From the NCBI GenBank assembly GCA_026397255.1, contig JAPLVF010000011.1:7589-71588 (forward strand): a DNA stretch of 64,000 nucleotides. Direction: 5' to 3'. The notes beneath the pieces were generated by a model, which was given only the letters and a program-made list of their open reading frames with translations, had not been told where the DNA came from and made no database searches. Below, one piece after another: positions 1 to 19,088 of this stretch. Origin of the DNA: Candidatus Beckwithbacteria bacterium (GTDB taxonomy: Bacteria > Patescibacteriota > Microgenomatia > UBA1400 > CG1-02-47-37). The position numbers and the translations under genes were made by a program. Within the stretch, counting starts at the first letter, position 1. Each line of letters starts with the position of its first letter.

Positions 1-250
1 GGTATTGCCGACGGTGTTTGTGGGTTATAGCTTGATTGTTTTATTTTTAATTGTGTCGCCAACACCGCAGGGGATAGGAGTGGTGGAGGGGTTGGTCCCG
101 GTAATTTTAAGCTCGTTCGGGGTAGGAATTGAAACCGGCTTGTTGGCAATCCTTATTTTCAGGGCGATAAATTTATGGCTGCCGCTTTTGGCGGGTTTTG
201 TGAGTTTGAATTATTTGGCAATAGGAGTAAAATCTCAGTTAAAGGAGTAA
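1..250 (+). CDS. C-terminal fragment of a UPF0104/LPG-synthase-TM (flippase-like) family membrane protein; 5' end lies outside the window
   Basis: Hydrophobic C-terminus 'TPQGIGVVEGLVPVILSSFGVGIETGLLAILIFRAINLWLP' resembles the conserved PGGlGvrE...R tail of UPF0104 proteins; the ORF is open to the window start. Confidence 0.4.
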   Translation, partial: VLPTVFVGYSLIVLFLIVSPTPQGIGVVEGLVPVILSSFGVGIETGLLAILIFRAINLWLPLLAGFVSLNYLAIGVKSQLKE

Positions 251-476: not shown

Positions 477-2228
477 ATGGATCAGATTGAGGAAGTGCGG
501 CGGAAGACGGATATTGTAGCTTTGATTTCCGGTTATATCACTTTAAAAAAGGCCGGGAGGAATTTTAAGGCACTGTGCCCGTTTCATGAGGAAAAAACAC
601 CCAGCTTTATGGTGTCGCAAGAGCGGCAGATTTGGAAGTGTTTCGGCTGTCAAAAGGGCGGGGATGTTTTTAAATTTATCATGGAAAAAGAGGGGATGGA
701 GTTTGGGGAAACACTGCGGTTTTTAGCCGATAAAGCCGGAATCGAGCTTAAAGATTTCCGGCCAAGCCAGGACCAGAAAATCAAAGAACGGTTATTGGAG
801 ATTAATCATTTAGCCAGCGAGTTTTACCACTATCTACTAGTCGAGCATAAATTGGGTAAAAAAGCGCTTCAATACATACTAAAAAGAGGGATACGAAAAG
901 ATTCTATCCGACTGTTTAAATTAGGTTATGCACCGAATGAATGGCAGGGTTTAATTAATTATTTAACTAAGAAAAAGAACTATAAATTAGAAGAAATCGA
1001 GCAAGCGGGCTTGGGTATTCAAAGCGATAAGGGAAGAGTTTATGACCGGTTTAGAGGTAGAGTGATGTTTCCTTTGTTTGATATGAGGGGAAGAGTCTTG
1101 GGGTTTAGCGGAAGAGTGATGGAGGGAGAAGTTAAAGAAGCCAAATATATTAATTCACCGGAGACACTTTTATACCACAAATCAGCCATGCTTTACGGCC
1201 TGGAAACGACTAAAGAGGAGATTAAAAAAGATAACCGGGCAATTGTGGTGGAGGGGGAACTGGACATGATTTCCTCTTATCAGGCCGGGGTGAAAAATGC
1301 GGTGGCGATCAAGGGTTCGGCTTTAACGATAGAACAAATAGGGCTTTTGAAAAGATTTTGCGAAAACTTGAGCCTGGCTTTGGACAGTGACGCGGCCGGT
1401 GACGCGGCGGCGAGGCGGGGGATAGAATTAGCCGAAAATAGCGGTTTATCCTTGCGGGTAATCCGGGTTAAATACGGCAAAGACCCGGATGAGTGCGCTC
1501 AAAAAGATGTAGGGTTATGGAAAGATTCGGTCAAAGAGGCGGTGCCAATTTATGAATTTTATATTGATTCGGCAGTGAAAAGATTTGGCACCAAAACGAT
1601 TGAGGGGAAGAAGAAAATCAGCCAGGAATTGGCGGGGGTTTTAGCAAGGGTGAACAATCAAGTAATTAAGGCCCATTATGTTAAAAAATTAGCGGAAGTA
1701 TTAAATGTCAGCGAAGAAGCAGTGGAGGCGGAGGTAGAGAAAGGGGAGAAGGTAGTACAAGTAACAAAAGTAACAAAAGTAGAACAAATAAAAACCAGAC
1801 AAGAACGACTGGAAGAGTATTTATTGGCGTTAATATTGCAATCAGGTGAGTGGATGGACGAGTTGGTTAAAAAAGTCGAGCCAGAATGGCTGGCAGAGAC
1901 GGCGATTAAGAAAATATTCATAAAATTAAAGCAGTGGTTTAAGGCGGGTAAAAAATGGGAGATTAACAGCTTTGTCAAAAGCCTGGCGGAGGAGTTAGCA
2001 GGACAAACAGACGCGGCCTATTTATTGGATTTAGATAAAATCATTGACGATTCTGATAAAACGGAGGTGGAAGTAGATAAAGCGATAACGGCAATAAAAA
2101 AAGCGCAACTGAAAGAGAAACTAACCCTTTTGTCGGGCCAAATTAAGCAGGCCGAACAAGAAAAAGACAAGGAAAAAGTTAAAACTTTAGAAAAAGAGTT
2201 TAGGGAAATTGCCCGAGGACTGGTATAA
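477..2228 (+). CDS. dnaG: DNA primase DnaG
   Basis: CHC2 zinc finger '[34 protein letters not shown]'; TOPRIM motif '[26 protein letters not shown]'; AGGAG RBS; followed by rpoD (classic operon). Confidence 0.93.
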
Positions 2229-3638: not shown

Positions 3639-3711
3639 TCCGCGGTAGCTCAATTGGCAGAGCGCCTCTCTGTTAAAGAGGATGTTACTGGTCCGAGTCC
3701 AGTCCGCGGAG
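3639..3711 (+). tRNA. tRNA-Asn (anticodon GTT)
   Basis: Hand-folded cloverleaf. Acceptor TCCGCGG/CCGCGGA. D-stem GCTC/GAGC. Anticodon stem CCTCT/AGAGG with loop CTGTTAA (anticodon GTT). T-stem ACTGG/CCAGT with loop TCCGAGT. Discriminator G; CCA not encoded. 73 nt. Confidence 0.85.
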
Positions 3712-5181
3712 CAAGGTAGTCGTTATTCTGACAGTCTTAGCCTCTATTAGACTTTGGAATAGCGGTGTATAGATTACTTTCGCAATCTTTTTATCCCTCA
3801 CTTCTATCCGCTCAAAGAACATTGATAAGTAATGGCGTTTAGCTTCAAAATTCGCATTAGCAAAAGTTTCTTTGATATTGTTTACCAGGTCAAGAATTGC
3901 GATAGTGGCATCAACATCAAACCCTCCCTGATTTTCGATAGTAGCCAACTCACTCTCTCGATTTTGTAAATCAATTGTTAGCTCACTATGCTTTCGTTTA
4001 AATGTTTCCCTGTCTACTATTTGGTCAACAAGGGCATCCTCAAGGACTTTACGTTTTGCCACAATTGCCTTGATTGCATTTTGGACGCCCTGAATTTCTG
4101 TTTCCTTTGTCTCCCTAGAACGATTTAGCAGTGCTTTGGCCTTATCAATTATTTGTTGAGTAAATTCTTTACTAAACTTTATTTTCCCCAGTTGTTCAAC
4201 TACTTGGGCCTCTAAACTCCCAAGAGGGGTGTAGTGATGACAGCCTCGTAAAGCATTGCCATGATAATAAGCAGATTTTTTGGTTCTATTCCAATCGCCG
4301 CACAAACGAGTATTGTCTTTCTGACAGAAAGCAAAACCATTTAAAAGCCACTGATATTTGCGTCTGCGACAGGCATTTTGATTATGTAGGGTAGATATTC
4401 TTTTGCAGGTATCAAATATTTCAGGAGTTGTGAGTGGTTTGTGATTGCCTTTAATAATTTCTCCGTTATACCGAAACATTCCAAGATAAAAAGGATTTTT
4501 TAAAAGGCTGTATAACACACTTCTGTATACTCGCTTATTATTCTTAGAACGCAAGCCTTTCTCAAACATAAGGTCAACTAAAGTATCGACAGGATAATTA
4601 CCAGTTGAATACAGTCGGAACATTTCGGTTATAAATGGTCCCTTTATTAGATCAATTTTAACCACCTTGTGAGGTTTTTCTTCTGTGCCCAAGTTCACAT
4701 TAAGATAACCTAATGGCGCCCAACCCGGGAAATCACCTAGTTCGCACTTCTTCTCTAAACTCTTTTTAACTTTCCTTCCAAGTAAACGACTATAAAAAGC
4801 ATTTGTACCCGCAAGAATAGTTTCAAAGAATTGCCCTTCGGGCGTATCGTTTAGTGGTTGATTGATAGCAATTAGCTGAGTGTTGCCTTTCCGTAGTTCA
4901 TTTTTAATAAAAAAGTGGTCAACTTCATTTCGGGCAATTCTATCGGTATCGACCACAAGTGCTGCATCAATTTTTTCTTCTTGGCATTGAATTATCATGT
5001 CTTCCAGTCCATCTCTTCCAACGGTCTTAGTGCCTGTCTTGCCCCCATCTTGATATACACCTACGACCTCATAACCTTTTTGTCTTGCCCATTTAATACA
5101 TGACTCTTTTTGAACTTCAGGCGATAAACCCTTCATCTGTTCCTCACTGCTGACCCTAGAATATATCACTGCTTTTTTCAT
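3685..5181 (-). CDS. large serine recombinase (phage-integrase type; resolvase catalytic domain + recombinase domain + zinc ribbon)
   Basis: N-terminal catalytic motif 'AVIYSRVSSEEQ' and 'DRIARN'; C-terminal Cys-rich region 'CGDWNRTKKSAYYHGNALRGCHHY'; coiled-coil tail; the last ~9 codons overlap the 3' end of tRNA-Asn. Confidence 0.85.
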   Translation of the reverse strand: MKKAVIYSRVSSEEQMKGLSPEVQKESCIKWARQKGYEVVGVYQDGGKTGTKTVGRDGLEDMIIQCQEEKIDAALVVDTDRIARNEVDHFFIKNELRKGNTQLIAINQPLNDTPEGQFFETILAGTNAFYSRLLGRKVKKSLEKKCELGDFPGWAPLGYLNVNLGTEEKPHKVVKIDLIKGPFITEMFRLYSTGNYPVDTLVDLMFEKGLRSKNNKRVYRSVLYSLLKNPFYLGMFRYNGEIIKGNHKPLTTPEIFDTCKRISTLHNQNACRRRKYQWLLNGFAFCQKDNTRLCGDWNRTKKSAYYHGNALRGCHHYTPLGSLEAQVVEQLGKIKFSKEFTQQIIDKAKALLNRSRETKETEIQGVQNAIKAIVAKRKVLEDALVDQIVDRETFKRKHSELTIDLQNRESELATIENQGGFDVDATIAILDLVNNIKETFANANFEAKRHYLSMFFERIEVRDKKIAKVIYTPLFQSLIEAKTVRITTTLLRGLDSDQ

Positions 5182-5459
5182 ACTTGTACCCCCTTTGGAT
5201 TGACTATAAATGCCTTAGCACAAATAATCTGTCTAATCCTTTTTATGACTGGATAGATACCAGGAATAAAACGATAGCCTAGCTCGGACAGCCTTACTTC
5301 AGCTATCCGAGTGGCTAACAATTCAAGATTTTTTTCTAGATTGTTTTTCATAGTTTTAATAAATAAACACCAATTTAACATCATCATTCTTAAACAAATT
5401 TTCAATATCAGAGAAACTCGCTGTATCTCTCGACAATCTATCGGGACCGGAGCAAACAA
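5178..5459 (-). CDS. hypothetical ORF overlapping the resolvase-like fragment; possibly part of a frameshifted gene
   Basis: ORF only; overlaps 5356-5459 in a different frame. Confidence 0.15.
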   Translation of the reverse strand: MFAPVPIDCREIQRVSLILKICLRMMMLNWCLFIKTMKNNLEKNLELLATRIAEVRLSELGYRFIPGIYPVIKRIRQIICAKAFIVNPKGVQV

Positions 5460-5700
5460 TAGATGTGATTTTTTTGTTTGCCGCTAATGTATACAGCATG
5501 TTTAATGCTGGTCGGTTAATATCTAATCCTGACTGTGCGGGGTCAAAGAGTACTCCTGAAAGTTCGATATTATTCTTTTTACAGTAATCCTTAATTAACT
5601 GTTCCTGCTTCTCAATTGTGTTAAAGACTGTATTTTTAACATCAACTGCGGTTCTTGCATAACCGATTGCAGTTTTTGTTTTTTTATTCATATTTATCAC
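5356..5700 (-). pseudogene. degenerate serine-recombinase catalytic-domain-like ORF (nucleophile Ser replaced)
   Basis: 'AIGYARTAVDVKN' aligns to the 'YxRVSTxxQ' motif with Ser->Ala at the nucleophile position; 'DRLSRD' conserved; only 114 aa and no DNA-binding domain. Confidence 0.35.
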
Positions 5701-5717
5701 CTCCTAACTAAATTTAG

Positions 5718-5768
5718 ACAACAAAAAAGACGTAGCTCTCGGCACGAAGGCCGTCTGAAACTACGTCT
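5718..5768 (-). terminator. rho-independent terminator on the minus strand, downstream of the 5864-6100 gene
   Basis: Compound hairpin AGACGTAG...(inner CGGC/GCCG)...CTACGTCT, followed on the minus strand by CTTTTTTGTTGTC. Confidence 0.5.
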
Positions 5769-5863
5769 AAAACTAAAAAACTTTTACTTAAAACTGTCAG
5801 TATTTTGAACTGATGTAATAACAGCATATATGTAAATAATCCCGATGTCAAGCCCTAATCTTA

Positions 5864-6100
5864 TTAATTATTTAATAATTTAGGGTTATTTTTATTAACT
5901 TTTTTATTATTTTTAACCTCAATTGCTACTGGTGCAGTATCAAGATTTTTCTGTTTTTTTATTTCGTGTCGTTTGGCTTTTCTTTTTGCCTGATATTTAG
6001 TCATTAGCGCTTTGCCTTTCTCAGACTGCATAAATCTTTTGCGGGCAGCAATTCCTTTTTCTGAGTGGGCGTATTTTTTTTGTGTTTCGGTCCATGACAT
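5864..6100 (-). CDS. small highly basic (K/R-rich) hypothetical protein
   Basis: 78-aa ORF; ~30% Lys/Arg; terminator downstream; no recognised domain. Confidence 0.35.
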   Translation of the reverse strand: MSWTETQKKYAHSEKGIAARKRFMQSEKGKALMTKYQAKRKAKRHEIKKQKNLDTAPVAIEVKNNKKVNKNNPKLLNN

Positions 6101-6324
6101 AGATATTCACCTCCTTTATTTATTAACTTTTAAATAATTATCACGACAAATTATCAATATGGCACGAGGGGTTTAGCGGTATTAACTGGGTAAAACGGGG
6201 GGTAGTATCTTTGGGGATTAAGAAGATAAGAACATGATTGTATGAGAGAGGAATGGTTCGGGTTATTTATTGATATCCGTCTTTATGAACTAACATATAT
6301 TGCCTCACAACCGAGGGAAAATAC

Positions 6325-6353
6325 TTGTAAAAAAGCGGTTATTTTTGTATGAT
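6325..6353 (+). promoter_or_regulatory. sigma-70-like promoter for the excisionase-like/helicase operon
   Basis: TTGTAA (-35), 17-nt spacer, TATGAT (-10) about 30 nt upstream of the ATG at 6382. Confidence 0.4.
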
Positions 6354-6381
6354 ATTGGTATCTATTAGTAGGAAAACGAAT

Positions 6382-6567
6382 ATGTCAGACATTCCAGAGT
6401 TAATAACTCTCAAAGAAGCCAGTAAAATATTAAAGGTACATCCAAACACACTTAGGTTGTGGGATAAAAATGGGATATTACCTGCGGTGCGTATTGGTGA
6501 GAAGAAAGTAAGAAGATATAGGAAAATAGATATAGAAAATTTTATTAAGAAAAATGAACGAAAATAA
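6382..6567 (+). CDS. excisionase/AlpA/MerR-type HTH DNA-binding protein
   Basis: 'ITLKEASKILKVHPNTLRLWDKNGILPAVRIGEKKVRRYRKIDIENFI' matches the excisionase-family HTH pattern; its stop overlaps the start of the 1531-aa gene. Confidence 0.6.
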   Translation: MSDIPELITLKEASKILKVHPNTLRLWDKNGILPAVRIGEKKVRRYRKIDIENFIKKNERK

Positions 6568-9500
6568 TATTCAAACTGATAACAGTGAGGACAATGTTAA
6601 GCTCTCTAAGAGCCTTACTTTTATTCGCGAAGTGGCTAAATATTTTATGGATTTCCTGGAAACAGACTTCCATAAAAGAAAAAATCCAAAACGAAGTGTT
6701 CAATTAAGGAGTGGAAATAATCTGCTTATTGGTTTAAACCTCAACAAGTATCCCACTTTTGCTAATCTGGTTTGGAAAGCGATTAACCACTCTTTCGATA
6801 AAAGTGTCTTAAATGGGATACCAAAAGGGGTTTATCGCACCAATATTCCTCAAAATCTCCTTGATTTAATAGAATTATCTCTCAATAAAATAACAAATAA
6901 GCAAATTGCTCAAATACTAGAGCAAGTCACAGAAGAGATTGAAAAATCATCTACTCTATATAAAAAAGAATATGATCAAGCCCTAAGTACCGCCCTTGAA
7001 GCAGCTTCAAAAATTATCCAAACAAATTTAGTCTTACCGTTTATTAGTTATTTAGAAAAGCCGCTAGAGAATTTGAATTTGGGAGATGAAGACAGCACTT
7101 ACTTAATGGAAGAGGAACTTACCTCTGTTCTCACCTCCTTGCTTGAAAATAAAATTTCAGAAGTAATTAAGCTTCTATTGGCAAAAGAAAAGGTTGATAT
7201 CTCCAAACAACTAAAGGATGTTTTTGACATCGATAACGCAAAAGCTAATATTTTGTCATTTTTTGAAAGTTTCCGTGTCGGAGATTTATTTGCGGAAGTA
7301 TATGAGATGGAGCGGAATCGTACCATTTTAGATAAACAGGAATTCTATCTTTATTTTTGCGATATTACTTTTGAAAAGGCAAAGTATCCAATTTTCTATA
7401 TTCCGTTTACTGTAGAAAAACAAAATGATCTATTAAATATAGAGTTTGATTCTCAAGTCTATATAAACAAGAAAGCACTTGAATACATTTCACAGCAATA
7501 TAATCAAGAAAAAGATAAAAAGGGAAATCTAAAAACCATTGCTGAAAGAATTATTTATCTAGCACAACATCAAAATGATTTCAGAGAATTAATAAGCGAA
7601 ATATTGAATGAGATTACTAACTTTTTTGAATTAGACAACAATATTAATATAGACAAAACAGATCCGCAGGTTGCAAAGAGTTTCCTTGTTAGGGCGTCTA
7701 ATTCATGCTACATAACCTTATTCGATAAATCTGATGAGGCGCTGGTAAACGATTACGAAGAAATTTTAAAGCTTCTTTCTTCCGAGGATAGTATTTTAGC
7801 TGGCGCTTTTAACAAGTTAATTGATGACTTTATTCAGAAAGACCCAAAAAGTTTCAATATAGAAATTCAAGAAGATTGGAATGATCAAGAAGTCCAGGAT
7901 AAACTTGTATTCCAAAGCCCAATTCCTTTAAATGAAGAGCAGCTTCAAATACTATCTGCTATAAAGCAAGATGATTGTAAATATATTATTGTGCAAGGTC
8001 CTCCTGGAACAGGTAAAAGCCATACAATAACCGCAGTTGTTTTCAACGCAATACTTAAAAACCAATCCGTTTTAGTTCTATCGGACAAGAAAGAGGCTCT
8101 TGATGTTGTCGAGGATAAGATAACGGAAACGATGAATAAAGTCAGGACTGATGATAATTTTCAAAACCCTGTTTTAAGATTGGGGAAAATAGGTAATGCT
8201 TATGCAAAGATACTAAGTCCAATATCAATTAAAGCTATTACAAATAATTTTCTTGCAGTAAAGAAAAATTATAAGGATTTAGAACAGAATATTGATAAAT
8301 CTCAAAAGTCATTAAAAGAGGACATAGAAGCCGAAATATTAACCTATAAGGATATCGACATAAAAGAGATTCACGAATACTTTGATCTTGAAAGCTACCA
8401 TACAAACAATGGCTTTCCGATTGATTTAGAAGAAGTAGTTAAACAGCAGGAGTCTGCGATAGATCTTGAAGAATTCCGGAAGATATTTTTAACACTGAAA
8501 GCTAAATTAGTAATTGATACTGATGAAAATGAAAAGACGCTAAAAATATTTGAATTATTGGATTTTTCTCTTGATGACTTTAAAGATACATCTGATTTTC
8601 AAAAATATTTACAGTTTTTGAACTCTCTTTCTTCCTCTATCACTAAACTGCGTGAAGTATATGGGGATAACTTAAATTCAATTCTAGAGTTCGAAAACTT
8701 CGATTCCTCTAGATTAAAAGTTCTAAATTCCTCAATACAAAAATATAAAGAGGAGAAAAACTGGCTATTCGGCTATCTATTCAAAAAAGATCAGATAGAG
8801 CGGCTAAATACTGAATTTAGAAAAAATTTTAAATATTCATCGTCAATTGAACCACAACAAAACTTAAAGAAGCTTGACGAAGCGGCAAACATTTATAATT
8901 ACGCAGATGAAATATTTAGCAAACTTGACAACAAATTTATTAGTAAACTGGACTACTTACACTTTTTTCATCAAGTCATAAAAGATGAAAGTGTTTTGTC
9001 ATTTTTAAATGACTTAATAGCTTTAAATGATGATATAAAATATCTCGGCTCCAATATAAATAAGTATCCACTTACGGCTAAAAAACTGAAAGTTAATCTT
9101 TCGTCGTTTAAAACTCTTACTGATAATAAGTTCACAAAAATATCAGATTTGGATTTTGATAAATTAATCAGGTATTTGAGTCTAAACCAAAAGATTGAAA
9201 AGGATTTTCAAGACATTCCTGCTCTTAACTACGACAGTCAAAAGAAGGATATTGAGAGCTTACTTACTGTGCAGATGACTCACGTCATGGACAACAGGCT
9301 CATTGGGTTTTGGACTCAACATCAGGCTACTGCGATTGCTTTAAAGAAAATAATTCAAAGCAAAATGAAGTTTCCTCAAAGTGAATTTCTAAAGCTTAAG
9401 GAGGCTTTCCCTTGCATTTTAGCTGGAATTAGAGATTATGCCGAGTACATCCCTCTCGAGCCAGAAATATTTGATCTAGTAATTATTGATGAGGCTTCAC

Positions 9501-11149
9501 AAGTAAGCGTTGCTCAGGCTTTTCCTGCTCTATTAAGAGCTAAAAAGGTATTAATCCTTGGAGACAAGAAACAATTTAGTAACGTTAAGACTGCCCAAGC
9601 TCGATCAGATGAAAATAGAAAATATTTAAGTCAATTAAAAGATTGTTTTGTTAAATGTATTTCTGATGAAGGTACAAAATTAGTAAAGCTCGAAAAATTT
9701 AACATTAAAACCTCTATTCTTGAGTTCTTTGAATTTATTAGCAACTACAACACGCAACTCTTAAAGTATTTTAGAGGCTACAAAGAGATTATTTCCTATT
9801 CGAATAAATATTTTTATCAGGACAGTCTTCAAGTAATGAAAATTCGAGGGAAGTCGATTGATGAAGTACTGAAATTTTCGTTTATCAAACATGATGGAAA
9901 AACGGAGTTGTTGCAAAATTCTAATGAATTGGAAGTCAAATATATTATTTCGGAATTGAAAAAACTAAAGGAATCAGGATCTAGCCAAAGCGTTGGTATT
10001 ATTACGCCTCATACTAACCAACAGAAATTATTAGTTGAAAAAATTAGCCAATTACCCGAAAAGGATTACTTTTACGATACTTTTAAATTAAAGATAATGA
10101 CTTTTGATACCTGCCAGGGTGAAGAGAGAGACATTATATTTTATTCAATGGTTGCGACTGAAGAAGACGATCATCTTTGGGGCGTGTTCATCAAAGATTT
10201 AAATGATGTTGATGTTGAAGAAGAAGGAAGAATAAAAGCCCAACGATTAAATGTTGGCTTAAGTCGTGCTAAAGAATGTATGCATTTTGTGCTAAGTAAA
10301 CCTATTGAAAACTATACCGGCTCAATAGGCGAGGCTTTGAGACACTATTATTTTGTCCTTAATGAAGCCAAAAAAGAGCATAGTGTTACCGAAGTTGATA
10401 AAAAATCCAAGATGGAGCCTGAAGTTATGAATTGGTTTTACCAGACGGATTTTTGGACAAAACATAAAGATAGTGTTGAGTTTATTCCCCAGTTTGAGCT
10501 TGGAAAATATTTGAAGCAACTTGATAGAACCTACAATCATCCAAAATATAAGGTAGATTTCTTACTTGTATATAAAGATGAAACACATAAAGAGCATAAG
10601 ATCGTAATGGAATATGATGGTTTTAAGGAGCACTTTAAGGATGTAGATGAGATAAATGAATATAACTATCAAGACTATTATTCTGAGTCAGATATTTATA
10701 GAGAAAAAGTATTAGAAAGTTACGGCTACAGATTTTTAAGAGTAAATAAATTTAACATTGGTAGTAACCCCATTGCCACTCTTAACGAGAGAATAACAAG
10801 TTTAGTTAAAAATGGTGCAGGGAAAAACAATGTTATTAGTCATATACACGAGACAGTAGAAAATTTAGAAAATGGTTCGATGAAGGAGTGTCCAAAATGT
10901 AAGGAGGTTAGAGAATACAAAGATTTTAGGGACCCCGATTTGACAACCGGATATGGACGATTTTGCATGCATTGTAAGGGTTATACGCTAGTTGATAAGC
11001 CCGTCGAAGAAGTTAATGACGTTGTAACTTCTGGTGATAAGAATTGTCCCAAGTGCGGTTCAAGTATGATTTTAAGAAATGGGAGATATGGCCGTTTTTA
11101 TGGATGTTCCCGTTTCCCTTATTGTAGAGGAACTAGACAATATATCTAA
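6554..11149 (+). CDS. 1531-aa multidomain protein: DUF4011-like N-terminus + SF1 (Upf1/AAA_11-AAA_12-type) helicase + DUF559/Vsr-like endonuclease + two topoisomerase-type C4 zinc ribbons (Hhe-like)
   Basis: Walker A 'VQGPPGTGKSHTITAVV'; motif II 'DLVIIDEASQV'; 'MTFDTCQGEERDIIFYSMV'; 'LNVGLSRAKECMHFV'. DUF559-like 'KVDFLLVYKDETHKEHKIVMEYDGFKEHF...YGYRFLRVNKF'. zf-C4_Topoisom-like 'CPKCGSSMILRNGRYGRFYGCSRFPYCRGT'. N-terminal 'YPIFYIPFTVEKQNDLLNIEFDSQVYINKKALEYI' resembles the DUF4011 core. Confidence 0.75.
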   Translation: MNENNIQTDNSEDNVKLSKSLTFIREVAKYFMDFLETDFHKRKNPKRSVQLRSGNNLLIGLNLNKYPTFANLVWKAINHSFDKSVLNGIPKGVYRTNIPQNLLDLIELSLNKITNKQIAQILEQVTEEIEKSSTLYKKEYDQALSTALEAASKIIQTNLVLPFISYLEKPLENLNLGDEDSTYLMEEELTSVLTSLLENKISEVIKLLLAKEKVDISKQLKDVFDIDNAKANILSFFESFRVGDLFAEVYEMERNRTILDKQEFYLYFCDITFEKAKYPIFYIPFTVEKQNDLLNIEFDSQVYINKKALEYISQQYNQEKDKKGNLKTIAERIIYLAQHQNDFRELISEILNEITNFFELDNNINIDKTDPQVAKSFLVRASNSCYITLFDKSDEALVNDYEEILKLLSSEDSILAGAFNKLIDDFIQKDPKSFNIEIQEDWNDQEVQDKLVFQSPIPLNEEQLQILSAIKQDDCKYIIVQGPPGTGKSHTITAVVFNAILKNQSVLVLSDKKEALDVVEDKITETMNKVRTDDNFQNPVLRLGKIGNAYAKILSPISIKAITNNFLAVKKNYKDLEQNIDKSQKSLKEDIEAEILTYKDIDIKEIHEYFDLESYHTNNGFPIDLEEVVKQQESAIDLEEFRKIFLTLKAKLVIDTDENEKTLKIFELLDFSLDDFKDTSDFQKYLQFLNSLSSSITKLREVYGDNLNSILEFENFDSSRLKVLNSSIQKYKEEKNWLFGYLFKKDQIERLNTEFRKNFKYSSSIEPQQNLKKLDEAANIYNYADEIFSKLDNKFISKLDYLHFFHQVIKDESVLSFLNDLIALNDDIKYLGSNINKYPLTAKKLKVNLSSFKTLTDNKFTKISDLDFDKLIRYLSLNQKIEKDFQDIPALNYDSQKKDIESLLTVQMTHVMDNRLIGFWTQHQATAIALKKIIQSKMKFPQSEFLKLKEAFPCILAGIRDYAEYIPLEPEIFDLVIIDEASQVSVAQAFPALLRAKKVLILGDKKQFSNVKTAQARSDENRKYLSQLKDCFVKCISDEGTKLVKLEKFNIKTSILEFFEFISNYNTQLLKYFRGYKEIISYSNKYFYQDSLQVMKIRGKSIDEVLKFSFIKHDGKTELLQNSNELEVKYIISELKKLKESGSSQSVGIITPHTNQQKLLVEKISQLPEKDYFYDTFKLKIMTFDTCQGEERDIIFYSMVATEEDDHLWGVFIKDLNDVDVEEEGRIKAQRLNVGLSRAKECMHFVLSKPIENYTGSIGEALRHYYFVLNEAKKEHSVTEVDKKSKMEPEVMNWFYQTDFWTKHKDSVEFIPQFELGKYLKQLDRTYNHPKYKVDFLLVYKDETHKEHKIVMEYDGFKEHFKDVDEINEYNYQDYYSESDIYREKVLESYGYRFLRVNKFNIGSNPIATLNERITSLVKNGAGKNNVISHIHETVENLENGSMKECPKCKEVREYKDFRDPDLTTGYGRFCMHCKGYTLVDKPVEEVNDVVTSGDKNCPKCGSSMILRNGRYGRFYGCSRFPYCRGTRQYI

Positions 11150-11157
11150 TTAAAAAT

Positions 11158-12408
11158 ATGAAAAAAATTAAAGTAACAATCCAGGACGAAAACACACTAA
11201 AACTATTAGAAGATGCCCAAAGGGGTGACATAATCGATCTCAAATCGATACACGAAACGGATATAGATAAAACTACAATTGATATCCTAATCAAATCAAT
11301 CAAAACTGATGAGTTTAATTCACAGCTAGAGGAAGCAAAACGCAATATCGAAAAAGAGAAGGGTCTTGAGGCTCAACTCAAAGAAAAAGACATTATTAAT
11401 AGAGCGAAAGAAGCGCTTGCAAAGAAAGATCAGGAGATTGTCAATTTAAACACTAAAGTCGAAAACATTGCCAAACAGGTTGAATCGGATGCAAAAATTG
11501 AAGCCTTAGAAGAGAAAAAGTCTTTGGAAGATGGTTATCAGCAAAAATTGACTGAAAAAGAAGCTGAAATTCAAGAGATTAAACATCAAAAAGAACTAAA
11601 TGAGCAAAAATACCAGGATCAACTCAAAGCGAGCGAAACTGCTTTAGTCTCTCTAAAAGAAATGCGGTCTAGAATGAGTACCAAAATGATTGGTGAATCA
11701 TTAGAGGTTCACTGTGAGAACGAGTTTAATAGGCTTCGCCCGTTTGCTTTTCCTAAGGCTCAATTCGGAAAAGATAATCAACTTTCAACTTCGGGGTCCA
11801 AAGGAGACTATATCTATCGAGAACTTGACGATGACGGTAATGAAATTTTAACCATTATGTTTGAGATGAAAAATGAGGAAGATGAAACATCTACTAAACA
11901 TAAAAATAAAGACTTTTTCAGGGAATTAGATAAAGATCGACGAGAAAAAAAATGTGAATATGCAGTACTTGTCAGCTTATTGGAAAAAGAAAACGAATAT
12001 TATGACGATATTGTTACAGTGCCTGAATATCCATGCATGTTTGCCATAAGGCCTCAACATTTTATTACAATAATTGGGTTTTTACGCCAAGGTAATTTGA
12101 AATCTCAAGAATTGCGACTGACTATTCAAAATCTTAAAAATCAAAACATCGATGTAACCAATTTTGAATCCAATATAAATGCATTTAAGGATGCTTTTGC
12201 TAGAAATTATAACTTAGCTGCTGATCAATTTAGTAAAGCAATTGAAGAAATCGATAAGACTATTGATCATCTCAATAAGGTTAAAGAAAATTTGCTCAAA
12301 TCAGACAATAACCTGAGATTAGCTAACAACAAAGCCACAGAACTTACAGTAAAAAGATTGACAGCTAACAGTCCAAGTGTTGCAAGGGCTTTTGCGGAAA
12401 AAGTCTAA
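11158..12408 (+). CDS. DUF2130-like coiled-coil protein with a C-terminal PD-(D/E)xK-like putative nuclease core
   Basis: Long E/K-rich coiled coil, then 'SKGDYIYRELDDDGNEILTIMFEMKNEED...EYAVLVSLLE' (D...ExK pattern); 9 nt after the helicase stop. Confidence 0.5.
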   Translation: MKKIKVTIQDENTLKLLEDAQRGDIIDLKSIHETDIDKTTIDILIKSIKTDEFNSQLEEAKRNIEKEKGLEAQLKEKDIINRAKEALAKKDQEIVNLNTKVENIAKQVESDAKIEALEEKKSLEDGYQQKLTEKEAEIQEIKHQKELNEQKYQDQLKASETALVSLKEMRSRMSTKMIGESLEVHCENEFNRLRPFAFPKAQFGKDNQLSTSGSKGDYIYRELDDDGNEILTIMFEMKNEEDETSTKHKNKDFFRELDKDRREKKCEYAVLVSLLEKENEYYDDIVTVPEYPCMFAIRPQHFITIIGFLRQGNLKSQELRLTIQNLKNQNIDVTNFESNINAFKDAFARNYNLAADQFSKAIEEIDKTIDHLNKVKENLLKSDNNLRLANNKATELTVKRLTANSPSVARAFAEKV

Positions 12409-12484
12409 ATATGGATTACTTTAATGTTTTAGCAACGAAGATTAAATGAAATTAAGCTTTTAGAGAAATGGTTATTGGAATTTT

Positions 12485-13030
12485 ATGAGAGTAGCTATAC
12501 TAGAAAAAATATCTCGAGAACTCAGTAGTGGAATTGATACCGAACCGAAGACTCTATATATACTTGCTGAGATTAGAAAGTACATTGACGGTTACGATGA
12601 AGCGGAAAAAGAAAATTATCCCAACCTATACTTCTATTGCGATTGGGTTTTACACATTCAAATGGATCGAACTCCAACAAAAACACTTTTAAACAGATTC
12701 GAATCCCTTTTTTCAGGTATTACCGATCTGAAAGAAATATCAAGACTTTTTAAAGAACGAGAAAGAAATTTCTACCTGTTAGTAGATTTAAAAGAAGAAC
12801 TACGAAATTTCCTAGTTAAAAACGGTTTATCATTGGATCTAATTGAAAATAATGGTAAATGGTTTAAGTTCAAAAAGCTGTTAACGGAAATACTCCTGGA
12901 TTGTCCATTGGTGAATACAGGAGGTAGAGTAGGCAGGTTCGCTTATGAAAAAGGAGACGATGCGCAAACAAGGTTCAGGATTAAAATAGATAGGCTTGGA
13001 TCCTTCAAAATTACTCTGAAAGAAAAATAG
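12485..13030 (+). CDS. hypothetical protein (181 aa), last gene of the island operon
   Basis: ORF only; same strand, 76 nt after the DUF2130-like gene; no known motif. Confidence 0.35.
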   Translation: MRVAILEKISRELSSGIDTEPKTLYILAEIRKYIDGYDEAEKENYPNLYFYCDWVLHIQMDRTPTKTLLNRFESLFSGITDLKEISRLFKERERNFYLLVDLKEELRNFLVKNGLSLDLIENNGKWFKFKKLLTEILLDCPLVNTGGRVGRFAYEKGDDAQTRFRIKIDRLGSFKITLKEK

Positions 13031-13222
13031 AAAGGCATTACATTTTTAACCTTCTCTGAAAGGCGGGGAAACTTTCGATTTCGTTACTCTGAACTTAACC
13101 TGTTGTCCTATTACCTTTTTATCTTCTTCGATTAATTCCCCTCTTGATACTTCTACTCTTAATGAAGCATAGAAGCCTAAAGCACGACCCCCAGTAGTTA
13201 TATTTGGGTTTCCATATTGCCA

Positions 13223-14299
13223 TTATTTAACAATAATTCCGTCAACTAAGAAGTTGTTATTTTCTGTTTCAAGGCTAAATCTTTCCATTGTGCGTGTTCG
13301 TTGTTTTATATACTTAGTTAATATCTTACTTTCCTTTATAAGGTATTTTTTAGTTTCAAAGACTCTTTTTGGTTCTATAAAATTACTCGATCGATATTCA
13401 ACAGGTACTTTATATCGCATTACAGGATGAATATATTCCCCACAAATATTAAAGAATTTCCTTGTTTCTTTTGTTCCAAGGGTTATTATGAGCTCGGTAT
13501 CGCGTGCTATTGTTGTTTTTGTATTAATATCGTATCTCTGTTTTAGGAAAGTTCTTAATATCTCAATGGAGGGCTCATTAAAGCAATTTGTACAGATTTT
13601 AATAGCTTTTCTGTCACCATCAACAAAAGATCCATCGTCTTGATACCAAATAGCTAGAACAAGGGGGGAAATATCTATGTCTTTGGGGACTTTATGTTTC
13701 TTTGTTCCTTGATAGAAATCAATATATCTTTGTCTAAACGTAGTGCTTAAAAATGTTTCTAGATATAAACCTCCCCGTTTGTGCTTTCCCATTGTTTTAA
13801 CTTTAAAATAACTAGATTTCCACAGTAAATAGTCGTCTTGTTCTTTACAATGGGTTTCCCTATATTGAAATTTTTCATTGCCTATTCTTCTTAAACATCC
13901 ATCACCAAGTAATCCACCTAAAATAATTTCTTTTTGGATATCGCTCGGTTGCCATTCTTTAATCAATAAAAGGATACTATCACCGACATTTATCTCTCCA
14001 ACTGTTTTATAACCATTTGGTGTTAATATTTGTTGTTCTGGAGTACAGGCGAATCTTGCTCTTCCATTTCCTTCGCACTTAGTTGAATAAAGTTGAATGA
14101 AATATTCTGCTTTACTATTATGAATCCAGTTTAATATCGGTTTTGGCTCAATACTGTTTGTATCTGTGTTTAACGTTAGTATATTCGCTTTAACCCTGTT
14201 ATTTACGAGATAACCAATCTTCTTTGTTGTTCTGTCTTCTAGAACGACTTTGGCATCATAGTGAAAATATGCGCATTTTTCATTATTTAGATTATTCAT
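13223..14299 (-). CDS. free-standing Hint-domain + LAGLIDADG homing endonuclease (intein-like, no exteins)
   Basis: N-terminal 'KCAYFHYDAKVVL' and 'FACTPEQQILTPNGYKTVGEINVGDSILL' (Hint blocks A/B-like); two LAGLIDADG-type motifs 'ILGGLLGDGCLRR' and 'LAIWYQDDGSF'; only 8 residues precede the Cys and the ORF ends ...DGIIVK*. Confidence 0.6.
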   Translation of the reverse strand: MNNLNNEKCAYFHYDAKVVLEDRTTKKIGYLVNNRVKANILTLNTDTNSIEPKPILNWIHNSKAEYFIQLYSTKCEGNGRARFACTPEQQILTPNGYKTVGEINVGDSILLLIKEWQPSDIQKEIILGGLLGDGCLRRIGNEKFQYRETHCKEQDDYLLWKSSYFKVKTMGKHKRGGLYLETFLSTTFRQRYIDFYQGTKKHKVPKDIDISPLVLAIWYQDDGSFVDGDRKAIKICTNCFNEPSIEILRTFLKQRYDINTKTTIARDTELIITLGTKETRKFFNICGEYIHPVMRYKVPVEYRSSNFIEPKRVFETKKYLIKESKILTKYIKQRTRTMERFSLETENNNFLVDGIIVK

Positions 14300-14758
14300 A
14301 TAGGAAACCGTAAAAATCGGTTCCCTATGAATGCCAATTCAGAGAGATACTAGAGAGGTTTTTAACCTCCTAAGCTATCCCATGGGTTTAGGATTATAGG
14401 TAGCGCATTTTGAAGAGAAGTAGTTTTAGAGGATATATTTATCCGGTTTTTACTTTACTTCTGCACAAAGCCGTAATTGATAACTACTTCCACGAGGGAT
14501 ACTGAAGCTGAAACTGTGTCTATTTACTTAATACTGGTACAGGTATTTTCCAAAATCTTCCATTGTTTGCCTCCACTACGGTATAATTAGTTTGCATTTT
14601 TAATAAGTCTTGTAATACTTGTAACTGAACCTTAACTCGTGCTAACGCTTCTCTAGGGAATAGCTGATACAGAACGTTCGGCGGGCTTTGGAGCCAACCA
14701 TTTTTAGCCTAAAACTTTTAACTTGCAAAAACATTATTTTTGGAGTAGATTGCGGCTA

Positions 14759-15775
14759 ATGAATGTAGAAAGTTTAGCAGAGGTAGCTCGAGGTCTCACG
14801 CCTGTGGGTAAGGGAATTTTAGCTGCTGATGAAAGTTCCGGTACAATAGAGAAAAGATTTAATACCATTGGGGTGATTTCTACAGAAGAAAATAGACGAG
14901 CGTATAGAGAATTACTGTTTACTGCGCCAGGAATGGAGCGGTATATAAGCGGCGTCATTCTGTTTGACGAAACAATAAAACAAAGTACACGCGGGGGTGT
15001 TTTATTTCCCGACCTTCTCACACAAAAAGGTGTCAAGCCTGGGATAAAAGTTGATCAGGGGCTTGAGCCCTTGGGAGAAAACGGCGAAAAGGTTACGAAA
15101 GGATTGGAAGGTCTTCCCGAAAGATTGGCAGAGTATGCGGCTCTGGGAGCTGTATTTACGAAATGGAGGGCAGTCATAAACATTGGAAATGGTGCACCCA
15201 CCGATGCCGCAATTGCCAGAAATGCTGAAGGATTGGCAAAATATGCAGCATTTTCTCAAGCAGCCGGATTGGTTCCAATCGTAGAGCCAGAGGTTCTCAT
15301 GGATGGTGACCATTCAATAAAGATGTGTCGGGAAGTTTCAATAGCTACTTTAACAAAGGTTTTTGCTTCGTTAAAAGATCACGATGTAGACCTTTCCGGT
15401 ATGCTCCTTAAACCAAGCATGGTTCTTCCCGGAAAGAATTCCCCCGATCAAGTTGATGACGAAGAAATTGCTAGACAAACAATAGAGGTGCTGTTGGCGA
15501 CCGTTCCCCGTTCGGTTCCCGGCATAGTTTTTTTATCAGGAGGACAAAATCCTCAAGAGGCAACAAGAAGATTAAACGCAATGAATAGAATGTTTAGGGA
15601 TAAAGTTCCTTGGCAGCTTAGCTTTTCTTATGGACGCGCTCTTCAGGAGCCGGTACTCCGGGCATGGGTGGGGAAGCCCGAGAACGTAATAGCCGCTCAA
15701 AAGGCTTTCATAAAGCGGGCGTGGTTAAACAGCTCTGCACGTTTCGGAATGTATAAACCCGGAATGGAGGGGTAG
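14759..15775 (+). CDS. class I fructose-bisphosphate aldolase, eukaryotic/Glycolytic-family type
   Basis: 'KGILAADESSGTIEKRF', 'IVPIVEPEVLMDGDH', Schiff-base Lys context 'MLLKPSMVLPG', 'LSFSYGRALQ'. Aligns end-to-end with animal/plant ALDOA-type enzymes. Start taken at MNVESL (14759); the ORF-track start at 14723 is probably too far upstream. Confidence 0.9.
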   Translation: MNVESLAEVARGLTPVGKGILAADESSGTIEKRFNTIGVISTEENRRAYRELLFTAPGMERYISGVILFDETIKQSTRGGVLFPDLLTQKGVKPGIKVDQGLEPLGENGEKVTKGLEGLPERLAEYAALGAVFTKWRAVINIGNGAPTDAAIARNAEGLAKYAAFSQAAGLVPIVEPEVLMDGDHSIKMCREVSIATLTKVFASLKDHDVDLSGMLLKPSMVLPGKNSPDQVDDEEIARQTIEVLLATVPRSVPGIVFLSGGQNPQEATRRLNAMNRMFRDKVPWQLSFSYGRALQEPVLRAWVGKPENVIAAQKAFIKRAWLNSSARFGMYKPGMEG

Positions 15776-15874
15776 TGTTGATTAACACAATTAAAATTCG
15801 TGTTAGTTCATGGCGGGGGAGCTGAGGCTAATTTTGTGCACCACGCGGTTTAGGTGTTATGCTAGAATGAAATC

Positions 15875-16054: not shown

Positions 16055-16479
16055 ACCCTATTCATACGTGGCTGGGCGTTGGCTTAGGTAGAAGATAGAA
16101 CCATTTGACCTGACGACTTCTTAATTTCTTCCCATTTACTCTTAACTGACTCCATTTGAACAGTATCCTGTAAAGCTAATAATATCCTATCCAAGGCTGC
16201 TATAATTATTTCAGAACTGAGGAGTTATTAATGAAGATTATTTTTCGCACGCAGTTTGTTTTACTCCAATTCCTAAAAGAACTTGTTGGGGATTTTGGGG
16301 ATTGGCAAATAAAGCAACGTGGTAAGTATTGGCATTGGTAATTACGGTCACGGTATCGTTTGGTTTTTGGTTCGCCAGAGCATGAGTTAATTCGTCTTTA
16401 TTTCCAACACAATTTGTAGTCCGCACAATTTTTCTTTAGTAGGCTTGAGAAAGGAATTCACATACTAATTATATGCAGA

Positions 16480-17493: not shown

Positions 17494-18412
17494 AAGCGCG
17501 AAAGATAAGCGTCATCGAGAGGATTACTTTTTGACCTGCCAATTCATACGGAGCCAATCTTCCCTCCGCGTTCGGCATTTCCGTCTCTGGGATTTTTTCA
17601 ATATAACCGCCCAAGTTTTGTACCCCAACAGATCCTTGATCACCCGAACCAATAGAATCAATAATTAATGCCCCCCTTTCATTACCTGCGCTAATGATGA
17701 AAAAGTGTGGCTGGTCGTGCGCCCAGGCCCGTAGGAGCAAAACTCCACTCTTACTAAGGGTAGTTACAAAATAGTTGGGCCAGTCAGACTCGTGGGCAGC
17801 CGAGCTGCAATGATCATCACAATAAGGTATCAAAGGACGTGTTGATATTGACAAACCGTTTTCTTGGCCAAGATAATCAATTGCCGACCAAAGTTGATAA
17901 TCGCTCATGGGGCCATCTGCTTGTATAGGCGGCATTTTTTCTTTAAGTTTATTGTAGACATTAGCTATGGTAATGTCAGGAACCTTACCAGTCTCGAAAT
18001 AGGTAAACATTTTTAATATAGTGGCAATAACTGCCTCACCACATCTGACACTACGGTTTTCAGTACCGACAATTCCTTCATACTGGGTATCGTCAAATTG
18101 GGACGTAAGAATGACTCTTCCGCTTGAATCTAGCGGTTTTGTAAAAAAGTCGGGATTGGCTAATAAAGATTTGCGTTTTTCCTCAGTTAGAGGTTCCCAG
18201 CTTTTTGTTGGTTCTTGGGTGGTTGCAGCTTCAGTCGCAATTGAGATTGATGTTGGTGTATCAAAAGGAGCGAAGGTTGGGGTTTCGATTGTCAAAGTCG
18301 GAAAAGTGTTTGTTGGAGTTGCCTCAGGTGTGGTGGGCGAGGCCTTACATCCAGTCTGGCTGGCAATAAGGGCAAGCACGCTAAGAGTATTTATCAAAGA
18401 AAGTTCTTTCAT
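17486..18412 (-). CDS. secreted lipoprotein with a TP-rich linker and a C39/papain-like cysteine peptidase-like domain
   Basis: Signal peptide plus lipobox 'ASQTGC'; 'TPTTPEATPTNTFPTLTIETPT' linker; 'VRCGEAVIATILKMF' resembles the C39 'CGxAxxxxL' catalytic Cys block; downstream His in 'WAHDQPHFFIISAG'. Confidence 0.35.
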   Translation of the reverse strand: MKELSLINTLSVLALIASQTGCKASPTTPEATPTNTFPTLTIETPTFAPFDTPTSISIATEAATTQEPTKSWEPLTEEKRKSLLANPDFFTKPLDSSGRVILTSQFDDTQYEGIVGTENRSVRCGEAVIATILKMFTYFETGKVPDITIANVYNKLKEKMPPIQADGPMSDYQLWSAIDYLGQENGLSISTRPLIPYCDDHCSSAAHESDWPNYFVTTLSKSGVLLLRAWAHDQPHFFIISAGNERGALIIDSIGSGDQGSVGVQNLGGYIEKIPETEMPNAEGRLAPYELAGQKVILSMTLIFRASK

Positions 18413-18686
18413 GCAGCTGATTATACTCTACATTATAGGATTAATTTATACTATCGTTGGTGCTTTACAAGTAGTATAACTAGTTGTAGTGTATGAAGTA
18501 TGACAACTAAGCAGAGAATAACTCTATTTATTAATCCGGCGATTGTTAAACAGGCTCGGGCTCAGGCGGTCGTTGAGGAATTAACTTTGACTAATCTTGT
18601 AGAAAAAGCCCTGACTAACTACTTACCAACGCAAACAGTAATTAAGAAAGCTGAAATTAATAAAAATTAAAGAAAGTGAGAGAGAT

Positions 18687-19088
18687 ATGTTACAACAACA
18701 AACACAGACAGGAGAAGAAGCCCAGGTTAAGACAGGGTCTCCCCAAAAAGCCTACCAAACAAAAAAGGCAATTTTTCGTACCTATCAAGTCATTTGGTAC
18801 ATTCTAGGGGTAATTGAGGTGGTTCTGGCATTTAGAGTTCTGTTTAAACTTCTTGGGGCAAGCACCCAGAGCGGATTTACCAGTTTCATCTATGCAATCA
18901 GCAGCCCCTTAGCTTTGCCGTTTGCGGGAATATTAGGGAAAACAGGAGTTTCAGGAATGATCCTGGAATGGTCAACGCTAATTGCTATGGCAGTTTATGC
19001 CGTGATTGCTTATGGAATTGTGGCGCTTTTTCAACTAGTTAAGCCCACGAATCAAGAGGAAGTAGAAGAAACAGTTGATAATCAATAA
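18687..19088 (+). CDS. YGGT-family membrane protein
   Basis: 'FRVLFKLL...SFIYAISSPLALPFAGILGKTGVSGMILEWSTLIAMAVYAVI' fits the YGGT pattern F/Y..iT.P...P.R.......D.S. Confidence 0.45.
   Translation: MLQQQTQTGEEAQVKTGSPQKAYQTKKAIFRTYQVIWYILGVIEVVLAFRVLFKLLGASTQSGFTSFIYAISSPLALPFAGILGKTGVSGMILEWSTLIAMAVYAVIAYGIVALFQLVKPTNQEEVEETVDNQ

Follow-up and report, generated by a model that had tools for sequence, protein, structure and literature searches.

Serine integrases are the main tools for inserting large payloads into genomes, and a distinct protein normally determines their directionality. Among the elements mobilized by serine recombinases, the staphylococcal cassette chromosomes (SCC, including SCCmec) are inserted by Ccr enzymes at the 3' end of rlmH/orfX, a gene that is not inactivated thereby; tandem accretion at this site builds arrays that include recombinase-less remnants, the integration-site sequences recur as direct repeats of ~15 bp, and the attachment (att) site lies outside the ccr genes. 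Attachment sites within coding sequences are known from the SSV1-type archaeal integrases, where attP lies within the int gene and integration partitions that gene (PMC8371274), and from mycobacteriophage BPs and its relatives, where integration at an attP in a coding sequence alters the C-terminus and behavior of the encoded protein (PMC4557955). As for tRNA genes, the Islander paper of 2014 gave serine integrases specifying such a target as not known (PMC4383910). Here we analyze a 64,000-nt stretch of a Candidatus Beckwithbacteria chromosome (the window; positions 7,589–71,588 of contig JAPLVF010000011.1, assembly GCA_026397255.1), in which an AT-rich island adjoins tRNA-Asn(GTT) and carries the gene of a large serine recombinase (LSR). 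We put at roughly three in four the probability that positions 3713–14694 constitute a 10,982-bp integrative element placed by its own serine recombinase at the end of tRNA-Asn(GTT), with the LSR gene straddling attP. As a serine-recombinase island it belongs to an already known kind of element; its unusual aspects are the tRNA-gene target and an att site within the recombinase gene, such that a conserved tail is stripped from the latter. To our knowledge, the mobile elements of Patescibacteria are poorly known and genetic manipulation of these bacteria is not possible.

The LSR gene is antisense to tRNA-Asn and runs into it: its stop codon occupies 3685–3687, the overlap amounts to 27 nt, and its C-terminal 8–9 codons (L-R-G-L-D-S-D-Q-stop) are the reverse complement of the tRNA acceptor stem and T arm. 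The earlier note on this DNA had described just this, viz., a 498-aa recombinase ending 27 nt within tRNA-Asn with its last ~9 codons drawn from the T arm and acceptor stem, and both points hold on re-examination of the open reading frame (ORF) and of the antisense strand of the tRNA. On the LSR strand the attL core reads GCTC, at the Leu codon CTC. The island contributes at most the last 1–3 nt of tRNA-Asn, whose body is intact, and no fragment of it is duplicated. The second copy of the tRNA-Asn 3' end that the earlier note had suggested looking for is absent: the 3' 24-mer does not recur in the window at ≤3 mismatches, so that an attR in the form of a direct repeat is rejected; a direct-repeat search of the window returned nothing relevant, and tRNA-Asn was the only match in an Rfam scan of 3–17.5 kb. 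The lack of a second copy fits a serine recombinase. Homology to a related locus (L056) begins at the first base of tRNA-Asn, indicating that the tRNA is host sequence, there on a different flank. The recombinase of that locus is 95% identical to the LSR at the amino acid level, the DNA homology is limited to the tRNA, the recombinase and a 57-aa gene (86.9% nt), the genes beyond the tRNA are other chromosomal ones (FMN_bind, ApbE), and the cargo comprises an EcoRI-type methylase, GmrSD_N and HNH.

The right end of the island, which had been placed at ~14.3 kb from the shift in composition, lies ~400 bp further on, an orphan recombinase tail setting it at 14,694. Near the composition boundary the minus strand translates into LQSPPNVLYQLFPREALARVKVQLQVLQDLLKMQTNYTVVEANNGRFWKIPVPVLSK, which we termed the W tail: stops precede the frame, there is no start codon before Met-33, and the frame begins at GGAGC (14690–14694), a pentanucleotide with which the tRNA likewise terminates in attL (3708–3712). 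This GGAGC is shared by attL and attR of the window, and GAGC (tRNA strand; GCTC on the LSR strand) is the only block invariant in all aligned attL, attR and fused junctions. Relatives of the W tail were sought by tblastn and with a tail hidden Markov model (HMM), and orphan homologs were recovered in L007, L010, L012, L017, L048/L054, L059, L061, and L065, each starting exactly at GCTC. They are always on the recombinase strand, 4–8 kb upstream of the recombinase gene where both are on the same contig, and the DNA upstream of the tail start is mutually unrelated between loci or stop-rich. Altogether, orphan tails start exactly at GCTC, on the LSR strand, in 9 loci, at the distal end of 6.2–11 kb elements (10,982 bp in the window, 9.8 kb in L007, 7.6 kb in L022 with a tail of another class termed T2, 6.4 kb in L059, and 6.2 kb in L054). 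The homology of the window to the fructose-bisphosphate aldolase (fba) region of L051 begins at 14690; at the exact junction where the window has the W tail, L051 has a T2 tail, beside a conserved fba-side arm (..AGGCTAAAAATGG(T/C)TG-GCTC), indicating that this phosphodiester region has served two different elements for recombination.

When the two ends are joined in silico, both partners of the putative exchange are restored. The joined attB gives tRNA-Asn with its encoded CCA restored (..TCCGCGGAG-CCA-ACCATTTTTAGCC..; ..GGAG-CCA), and the joined attP falls inside the LSR gene, whose frame runs on for the 57 codons of the W tail to give a 547-aa protein. Excision would thus join ..ACGACTACCTT-GCTC-CAAAGCCCGCC.., with ...GTCAGAATAACGACTACCTTGCTCCAAAGCCCGCCGAACGTTCTG... 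as the attP junction and ...GTCCAGTCCGCGGAGCCAACCATTTTTAGCCTAAAAC... as the attB junction. The composition agrees with the earlier description of markedly AT-richer DNA: the GC content of 5182–14694 is 0.330 (1-kb windows 0.328 ± 0.012, maximum 0.356), as against 0.425 ± 0.025 (minimum 0.363) outside the island. By tetranucleotide composition, the same segment stands at an L1 distance of 0.348 from the remainder of the window, and none of 200 randomly drawn 9.5-kb chunks exceeds 0.153. The coordinates of the features are collected in Table 1.

Table 1. Features of the tRNA-Asn locus, in window coordinates.
Feature	Coordinates	Strand	Evidence	Remarks
tRNA-Asn(GTT)	3639..3711	+	ARAGORN (called at 3639–3712); Rfam RF00005 (3639–3711, 64.9 bits)	source of the B arm of the att site
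LSR gene, integrated form, 498 aa	3685..5181	-	Pfam Resolvase and Recombinase	
attL core GAGC	3709..3712	.		spans final acceptor-stem bases, discriminator G and first base beyond
Conserved 57-aa ORF	5178..5351	-		stop overlaps LSR start by 4 nt
111-aa resolvase N-domain protein	5356..5691	-	Pfam Resolvase positions 1–99 of 145, E 2e-14	
78-aa lysine-rich ORF	5864..6100	-		adjoins recombinase in L054, L056, L059–L062
HTH_17/MerR-type excisionase-like gene	6349..6567	+	Pfam HTH_17 5e-11; PHROG 66 'excisionase and transcriptional regulator'	
1531-aa SF1 helicase	6554..11149	+	Pfam AAA_11, AAA_12, Zn_ribbon_Top1	weak MTES_1575-type nuclease match; C-terminal Top1 zinc ribbon
DUF2130 protein	11158..12408	+	Pfam PF09903 1.9e-75	
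181-aa ORF	12485..13030	+	ORF list	
RecA fragment	13049..13222	-	Pfam PF00154 positions 196–250, E 5.6e-16	in frame right after the stop of the intein ORF
Hint + LAGLIDADG ORF	13223..14299	-	Pfam LAGLIDADG_2, Intein_splicing	
Orphan W tail, 57 C-terminal LSR codons as read across attP	14523..14693	-	translation; homologs	stop 14520–14522
attR core GAGC	14691..14694	.		right end of the 10,982-bp island
Class I fructose-bisphosphate aldolase (fba)	14759..15775	+	Pfam Glycolytic 5e-129	between two att remnants
Fossil T2 recombinase tail	16087..16224	-	T2 tail HMM E 4.5e-17; tblastn to P0043, P0063 and L022 tails	

By its catalytic domain, recombinase domain and predicted zinc ribbon with a coiled-coil insert, the LSR classifies as a large serine integrase. 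It matches Pfam Resolvase (PF00239, 8e-28, residues 4–146) and Recombinase (PF07508, 2e-9), PF13408 is found in most of its homologs, and Y7, R9, V10, S11, and Q15, including the catalytic serine of the R-x-S motif, are invariant among 39 homologs. A phmmer search matches it to the catalytic domain of the TP901-1 integrase (3bvp), and AlphaFold models place helices 338–385 and 391–434, the coiled-coil insert, between the strands of the zinc ribbon. The model of a long-form homolog (P0011; mean predicted local distance difference test score [pLDDT] 84) has the full serine-integrase architecture, coiled coil included, and Foldseek aligns it with full-length integrases (9dxd, phiC31 9rah, Bxb1 9iu2, LI 4kis; E 2e-19 to 3e-17). 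No tyrosine recombinase domain is found in 3.6–16.3 kb, where the recombinases are all of the serine family. This family membership, and cassette separators that are coding-tail remnants and not attC hairpins, set the locus apart from an integron. Nor is the element a prophage by the test of viral gene families, the PHROG matches being to excisionase/HTH, integrase and helicase only; a scan of IMG/VR with the recombinase profile yielded just 4 distant relatives.

The database holds 182 homologs of the LSR, most of them under patescibacterial taxon names as given by their sources, and a scan of the GTDB species representatives with the recombinase profile returned 44 loci. At 18 of these ARAGORN finds a tRNA-Asn(GTT) on the opposite strand that overlaps the mapped recombinase 3' end or lies ≤~65 nt from it, and 6 more (L003, L008, L019, L027, L033, L037) have a tRNA-Asn 3' end at the same place that ARAGORN missed. 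In L003, L019, L033, and L037 the 5' half of tRNA-Asn follows 240–615 nt further on, and the intervening sequence in L019 (11540–11754, minus) is identified by Rfam as a group I intron (RF00028, 69 bits). The gene thus adjoins the recombinase in at least 24 of the 44 homologous loci; the recombinases of L054, L056, L059, and L060 are likewise at tRNA-Asn. The recurrence of this tRNA at the recombinase 3' end indicates that the LSR lineage is Patescibacteria-wide and dedicated to the 3' end of tRNA-Asn. Literature searches found no description of the arrangement, nor any later account of a serine recombinase lineage dedicated to a tRNA.

Several other observations concern the target. The interruption of tRNA-Asn(GTT) in the four loci with a displaced 5' half is in the anticodon loop, probably also in L008 and L010, and the long tails that some recombinases acquire by read-through, e.g., ..DSNQQPSSYKNPSVTKRLGLSHH, probably enter the antisense strand of the tRNA intron. 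A conserved cluster of tRNA-Ser and tRNA-Arg lies 5–10 kb from the tRNA-Asn site in L006, L008, L019, L021, L029, L030, L032, and L054, indicating that the host-side neighborhood of the target is partly conserved across the phylum. Several of the contigs L003, L004, L009, L010, L013, L015, L016, and L022 were deposited as 'uncultured Gammaproteobacteria', 'Bathyarchaeia archaeon', 'Pedobacter sp.' or 'Pseudomonadales'; with their typical patescibacterial layout of a recombinase on tRNA-Asn, they are probably mislabeled or misbinned contigs of metagenome-assembled genomes.

The conserved body of the homologs always ends in ..VR(I/V)xxN(W/L)L, after which the C-termini diverge into classes. Here TGG, which encodes W, complements CCA, and CTC, which encodes L, falls in the core; tails of the form P(G/R)xDSN(Q/L/H) are the translated antisense strand of the tRNA T arm. 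Conserved extensions of 40–55 residues were grouped as tail classes T2, T3, and T4, which account for 14, 6, and 3, respectively, of the 23 tailed proteins among 120 listed homologs. The T2 tail is kept down to 35% identity of the body and is predicted in P0011 as two helices (495–509 and 513–534, pLDDT 63–79, AlphaFold). Protein searches with the W tail return only 10 short ORFs, four of which (P0242, P0243, P0248, P0249) are fused in frame to recombinase ends such as ..AKPTPILNALKTANMVRLRQVQL and ..ARLGILSHNWL. By its substitution pattern, the W tail evolves as coding sequence under purifying selection: the ratio of non-synonymous to synonymous differences (pN/pS) is 0.09–0.25 over the less distant pairs, in which pS reaches 0.67, and codons 1–32, which are untranslatable in the integrated state, are the most constrained part (pN/pS 0.00–0.23).

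These data also bear on an alternative that we consider unlikely, namely that the tail swap is functionally meaningless, the working C-terminus being ..N(W/L)L, the tails being kept as extended DNA sites or separate small genes, and the tRNA overlap being mere read-through. It would account for the many tail-less database copies, which, provided that the elements spread, still have to be capable of excision, for the tRNA-encoded extensions that vary in length and show no conservation of their own, for the W-tail fold that is not confidently predicted, and for the start codon present by chance in some orphan tails (P0241, P0247). However, non-synonymous change is rare over all 57 codons at the pS values just given, including the 32 for which the window offers no start; the length, frame and stop position of the W tail are kept at 44–50% identity; T2 tails persist on recombinase bodies that are only 35% identical; and a DNA site of ~25 bp cannot account for 170 nt of codon-wise conservation.

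Four further genes recur near the recombinase. The core module that accompanies it comprises the HTH_17 gene and the 78-aa and 57-aa ORFs, with the addition of the 111-aa resolvase N-domain protein in this sub-lineage. The 57-aa ORF is called as a gene in L002, L054, L056, L057, and L059–L062 and is 71% identical to the copy in L054; it has no Pfam or PHROG match, and its product is a candidate accessory or directionality factor. The 111-aa protein lacks the catalytic serine, with YARTAV in place of YSRVSS as read from the sequence. The 'degenerate second resolvase-like ORF' of the earlier note is a conserved resolvase N-domain gene and not a random pseudogene: serine-less proteins of 94–111 aa, encoded immediately upstream of the 57-aa ORF and the recombinase, are conserved in L059–L062 (e.g., L059 6336–6620 and L060 5525–5860), and they could regulate or poison the recombinase. 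The HTH_17 gene, already recognized as an excisionase-type gene in that note and supported as such by the Pfam and PHROG matches, is divergent from the recombinase module and is also conserved in L056 and L057. Its last 14 nt are shared with the beginning of the helicase gene, and in L056 and L057 it is directly upstream of restriction-modification cargo on the same strand; its product may control the cargo, instead of or besides excision.

The cargo itself is only plausibly defense-like. This label, given earlier, is based on PADLOC matches (PDC-S37, MkoA, MkoC, Hhe) that cover just the helicase core of the 1531-aa protein (residues ~960–1250); the DUF2130 protein has no significant PADLOC match, and Pfam, PADLOC and PHROG searches assign the 181-aa ORF to no family. 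In relatives of the island, restriction-modification genes take the place of this cargo. The 'homing endonuclease' of the earlier description is present as the Hint + LAGLIDADG ORF, but as an intein in decay, set within a likewise decayed piece of recA: the N-extein measures 8 aa, and at the C-terminal junction ..GIIV-HN has given way to ..GIIVK-stop. Together with the adjoining RecA fragment, it is what is left of a recA-like gene that contained an intein. The synteny of W tail and intein is also seen in L017 and L059–L064. The final 72 nt of this fragment (13047–13118) are 90% identical to L017 11649–11720, 40 nt after the recombinase tail there, suggesting a shuffling of end modules among elements.

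The variable region extends past the island, with fba between the island attR and the fossil T2 tail. The core of this tail is mutated to GAGT (16222–16225), and the tail is the attR remnant of an older insertion. The fba gene is 92.7% and 91.2% identical at the nucleotide level to those of L048 (9960–11021) and L051 (9939–11022), the homology being confined to the gene and ≤65 nt upstream, and the neighboring genes all differ in the three genomes; the fba product matches without differences an NCBI protein under the name Candidatus Beckwithbacteria. For comparison, rpoD is 66% identical to that of the L048/L054 genome at the nucleotide level (66% aa), and DnaG 43% at the amino acid level. We ruled out that fba as a native host flank (B' side) is the whole story, as it is far closer between the genomes than the housekeeping genes while its neighbors differ in all three. 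Hence, this core glycolytic gene seems from the identities to move horizontally among Patescibacteria at this locus, and it may do so as a cassette or as the leftover cargo of a decayed element.

Comparable arrays are found elsewhere. In L012, one recombinase (18071–19657) overlaps tRNA-Asn, a second one (10001–11626), T2-fused, lies 8 kb further out, and more orphan tails follow beyond it; L048/L054 and L051 have series of orphan tails in one orientation with small ORFs between them. Several orphan tails are preceded by ~20-nt remnants of recombinase 3' ends (e.g., GGTCAGATTAAGACAATTTG-GCTC in L017 and L054), which we read as retained half-sites. A tRNA-Asn-like 3' arm with a GAGC core also occurs away from a full tRNA at 15796–15822 in the window, ~11100–11126 in L051, ~40–90 (-) in L059 and ~1880–1935 (-) in L015; the motif of the window arm is weak, being present 6 times in the window, and in L059 and L015 a ~20-nt arm resembling the recombinase 3' end lies behind the GAGC core.

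Such arrays are in part what would be expected if the recombinase were an immobile, fixed chromosomal platform at tRNA-Asn, comparable to an integron integrase, with the AT-rich DNA consisting of captured recombinase-less cassettes. The core module (HTH_17, 78-aa, 57-aa, recombinase) is always beside tRNA-Asn whereas the cargo varies, short recombinase-less cassettes stand in arrays with orphan tails and the ~20-nt remnants between them, and unrelated cargo accompanies 95%-identical recombinases. Against this, in L054, where the order dnaG-rpoD-tRNA-Asn-recombinase is kept, DnaG and RpoD are 43% and 66% identical at the amino acid level and the recombinase 81%; the range for the recombinase, 81–95%, far exceeds the housekeeping values, across different flanks too. 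Moreover, the GC content of the LSR gene (0.389) departs from that of the host (0.425), L012 has two tandem recombinases, and the tail-fused recombinases displaced from the tRNA (L012, L017, L057) demonstrate that an enzyme arrives with the incoming units. We consequently regard a fixed platform as improbable.

We give next to no credence to a classic tRNA island, in which the crossover is inside the tRNA, the element supplies a replacement 3' segment and the displaced fragment at attR is too diverged to see: the LSR tail is indeed read from the T arm and acceptor stem, and a weak tRNA-like arm (GTGTTAGTTCATGGCGGGGGAGC, 15796–15816) lies 40 nt after fba, but the tRNA 3' 24-mer has no second copy, GGAGC is the sole sequence common to attL and attR, the orphan tails start at the core in all 9 loci, the L056 homology from the first tRNA base marks the tRNA as belonging to the host, there with another flank, the recombinase is of the serine and not of the tyrosine family, and the weak arm has an acceptor sequence unlike that of the resident tRNA. 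The earlier note's integrative element bounded by a large serine recombinase at tRNA-Asn thus stands as to element, enzyme and site; its tRNA-3'-end attL with the element supplying the 3' part has to be abandoned, as attL and attR share GGAGC only and there is no displaced fragment.

Returning to an element that integrates by way of an attP inside its own LSR gene, we propose the following course of events. The Candidatus Beckwithbacteria chromosome would receive the element at the last bases of tRNA-Asn(GTT), with strand exchange within the 4-nt GAGC, i.e., the acceptor-stem end, the discriminator G and the next base. Integration would separate the 57-codon tail from the LSR gene and strand it at the distal island end; in place of the tail, the integrated gene ends with 8 residues read off the antisense strand of the tRNA. 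The full-length 547-aa protein would then be made only from the circle or from tandem junctions and might be the integration-proficient or stable form, whereas the tail-less integrated gene, converging on the tRNA gene, might be down-regulated or altered in directionality. Candidates for the excision factor are the products of the HTH_17 gene and of the 57-aa ORF. New elements might enter at the tRNA-proximal attL, pushing older ones outward, which would explain the arrays: the outward elements would lose their recombinase genes and be reduced to short half-sites and orphan tails, giving an array with the acquired fba and the fossil tail. Integration by the element's own serine recombinase, exchange at the GAGC end of tRNA-Asn and a right end at 14,694 with the LSR gene spanning attP are in our estimate likely to very likely. 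We offer only tentatively a role of the tail exchange in regulation or directionality. Likewise speculative is a broader notion, in which the tail swap acts as a built-in state sensor, with full-length integrase arising only from the circle or tandem junction and integration switching activity, stability or directionality, and tRNA-Asn serves as an integron-like accretion platform, driven by a serine recombinase, at which Patescibacteria exchange defense genes and even genes of core metabolism such as fba.

Several points weigh against the proposal. The evidence is comparative throughout, and the activity of the window copy is putative. Neither an excised circle nor an empty attB was found in the one metagenome scan or in IMG/VR: the metagenome scan for the fba-side junction or the empty attB (GAGCCARCCATTTTTAGCCT) returned only the already known L052 contig, and IMG/VR scanned with the W-tail core 15-mer gave 82 matches, all by chance, with no tail behind any. 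In exact-protein look-ups of fba and rpoD for an island-free strain, the former led only to the source contig and the latter was not on record, and the long-form recombinase contigs L057 and L058, examined for circular elements, are both linear chromosomal contexts. The dyad symmetry of the reconstructed attP is weak, and a scan of 7 reconstructed or natural attP sites gave no consistent center at which to place the crossover dinucleotide. The protein search recovered no full-length recombinase fused to a W tail, only short fragments; AlphaFold gives the tail of a window LSR extended by it a pLDDT of 37–51; and ~3/4 of the database members of the family are tail-less, so that the tail cannot be essential for every activity. 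Finally, tRNA-like arms lie deep in arrays (L059 position 64, L015 position 1910, possibly 15796–15816 in the window), and a simple attP × attB exchange leaves their duplication unexplained.

If the proposal is true, an integration event that rewrites the coding sequence of the integrase itself would be a new and directly testable coupling of enzyme form to integration state, and the family would be a clear case of serine integrases specifying a tRNA gene. For Patescibacteria, it would supply a predictable, conserved landing site at the tRNA-Asn 3' end with a set of cognate integrases, and a visible record of past insertions, including the horizontal movement of a glycolytic gene.

Among known systems, the large serine integrases found in phages and in integrative and conjugative elements (ICEs; phiC31, Bxb1, A118/LI, TP901-1) share with the LSR the order of catalytic domain, recombinase domain and zinc ribbon with coiled-coil insert, as well as a very short att core, the lack of long flanking repeats and an integrase gene at one end of the element; the family of the window element differs in targeting a tRNA 3' end, in having no phage or conjugation genes and in being nearly absent from IMG/VR. 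The SCC elements resemble it in the insertion by a serine recombinase at the 3' end of a housekeeping gene and in tandem accretion, but the target gene and host phylum are other ones and here the LSR gene spans the att site. With integrons and the arrays of ICEs and cis-mobilizable elements it shares ordered cassettes of one orientation beside a recombinase gene, with site remnants between them, and recombinase-less units that could be moved in trans; in place of IntI, attC hairpins and a common promoter, the present arrays have orphan tails and ~20-nt half-sites as separators, and the mobility of their cassettes is putative. Islander-type islands with tyrosine integrases are alike in the tRNA 3' end, the adjacent integrase, the atypical composition and the defense-like cargo; here, however, the recombinase family is another, no tRNA segment is regenerated or displaced, and the shared core is only 4–5 nt long. 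In the SSV1 type, the enzymes are tyrosine recombinases of archaeal viruses and the gene is split into two large parts, whereas here the C-terminal tail alone is removed and the catalytic and DNA-binding domains are all kept. In BPs, likewise with a tyrosine integrase, it is the repressor that is affected by integration, whereas at tRNA-Asn it would be the gene of the serine integrase itself.

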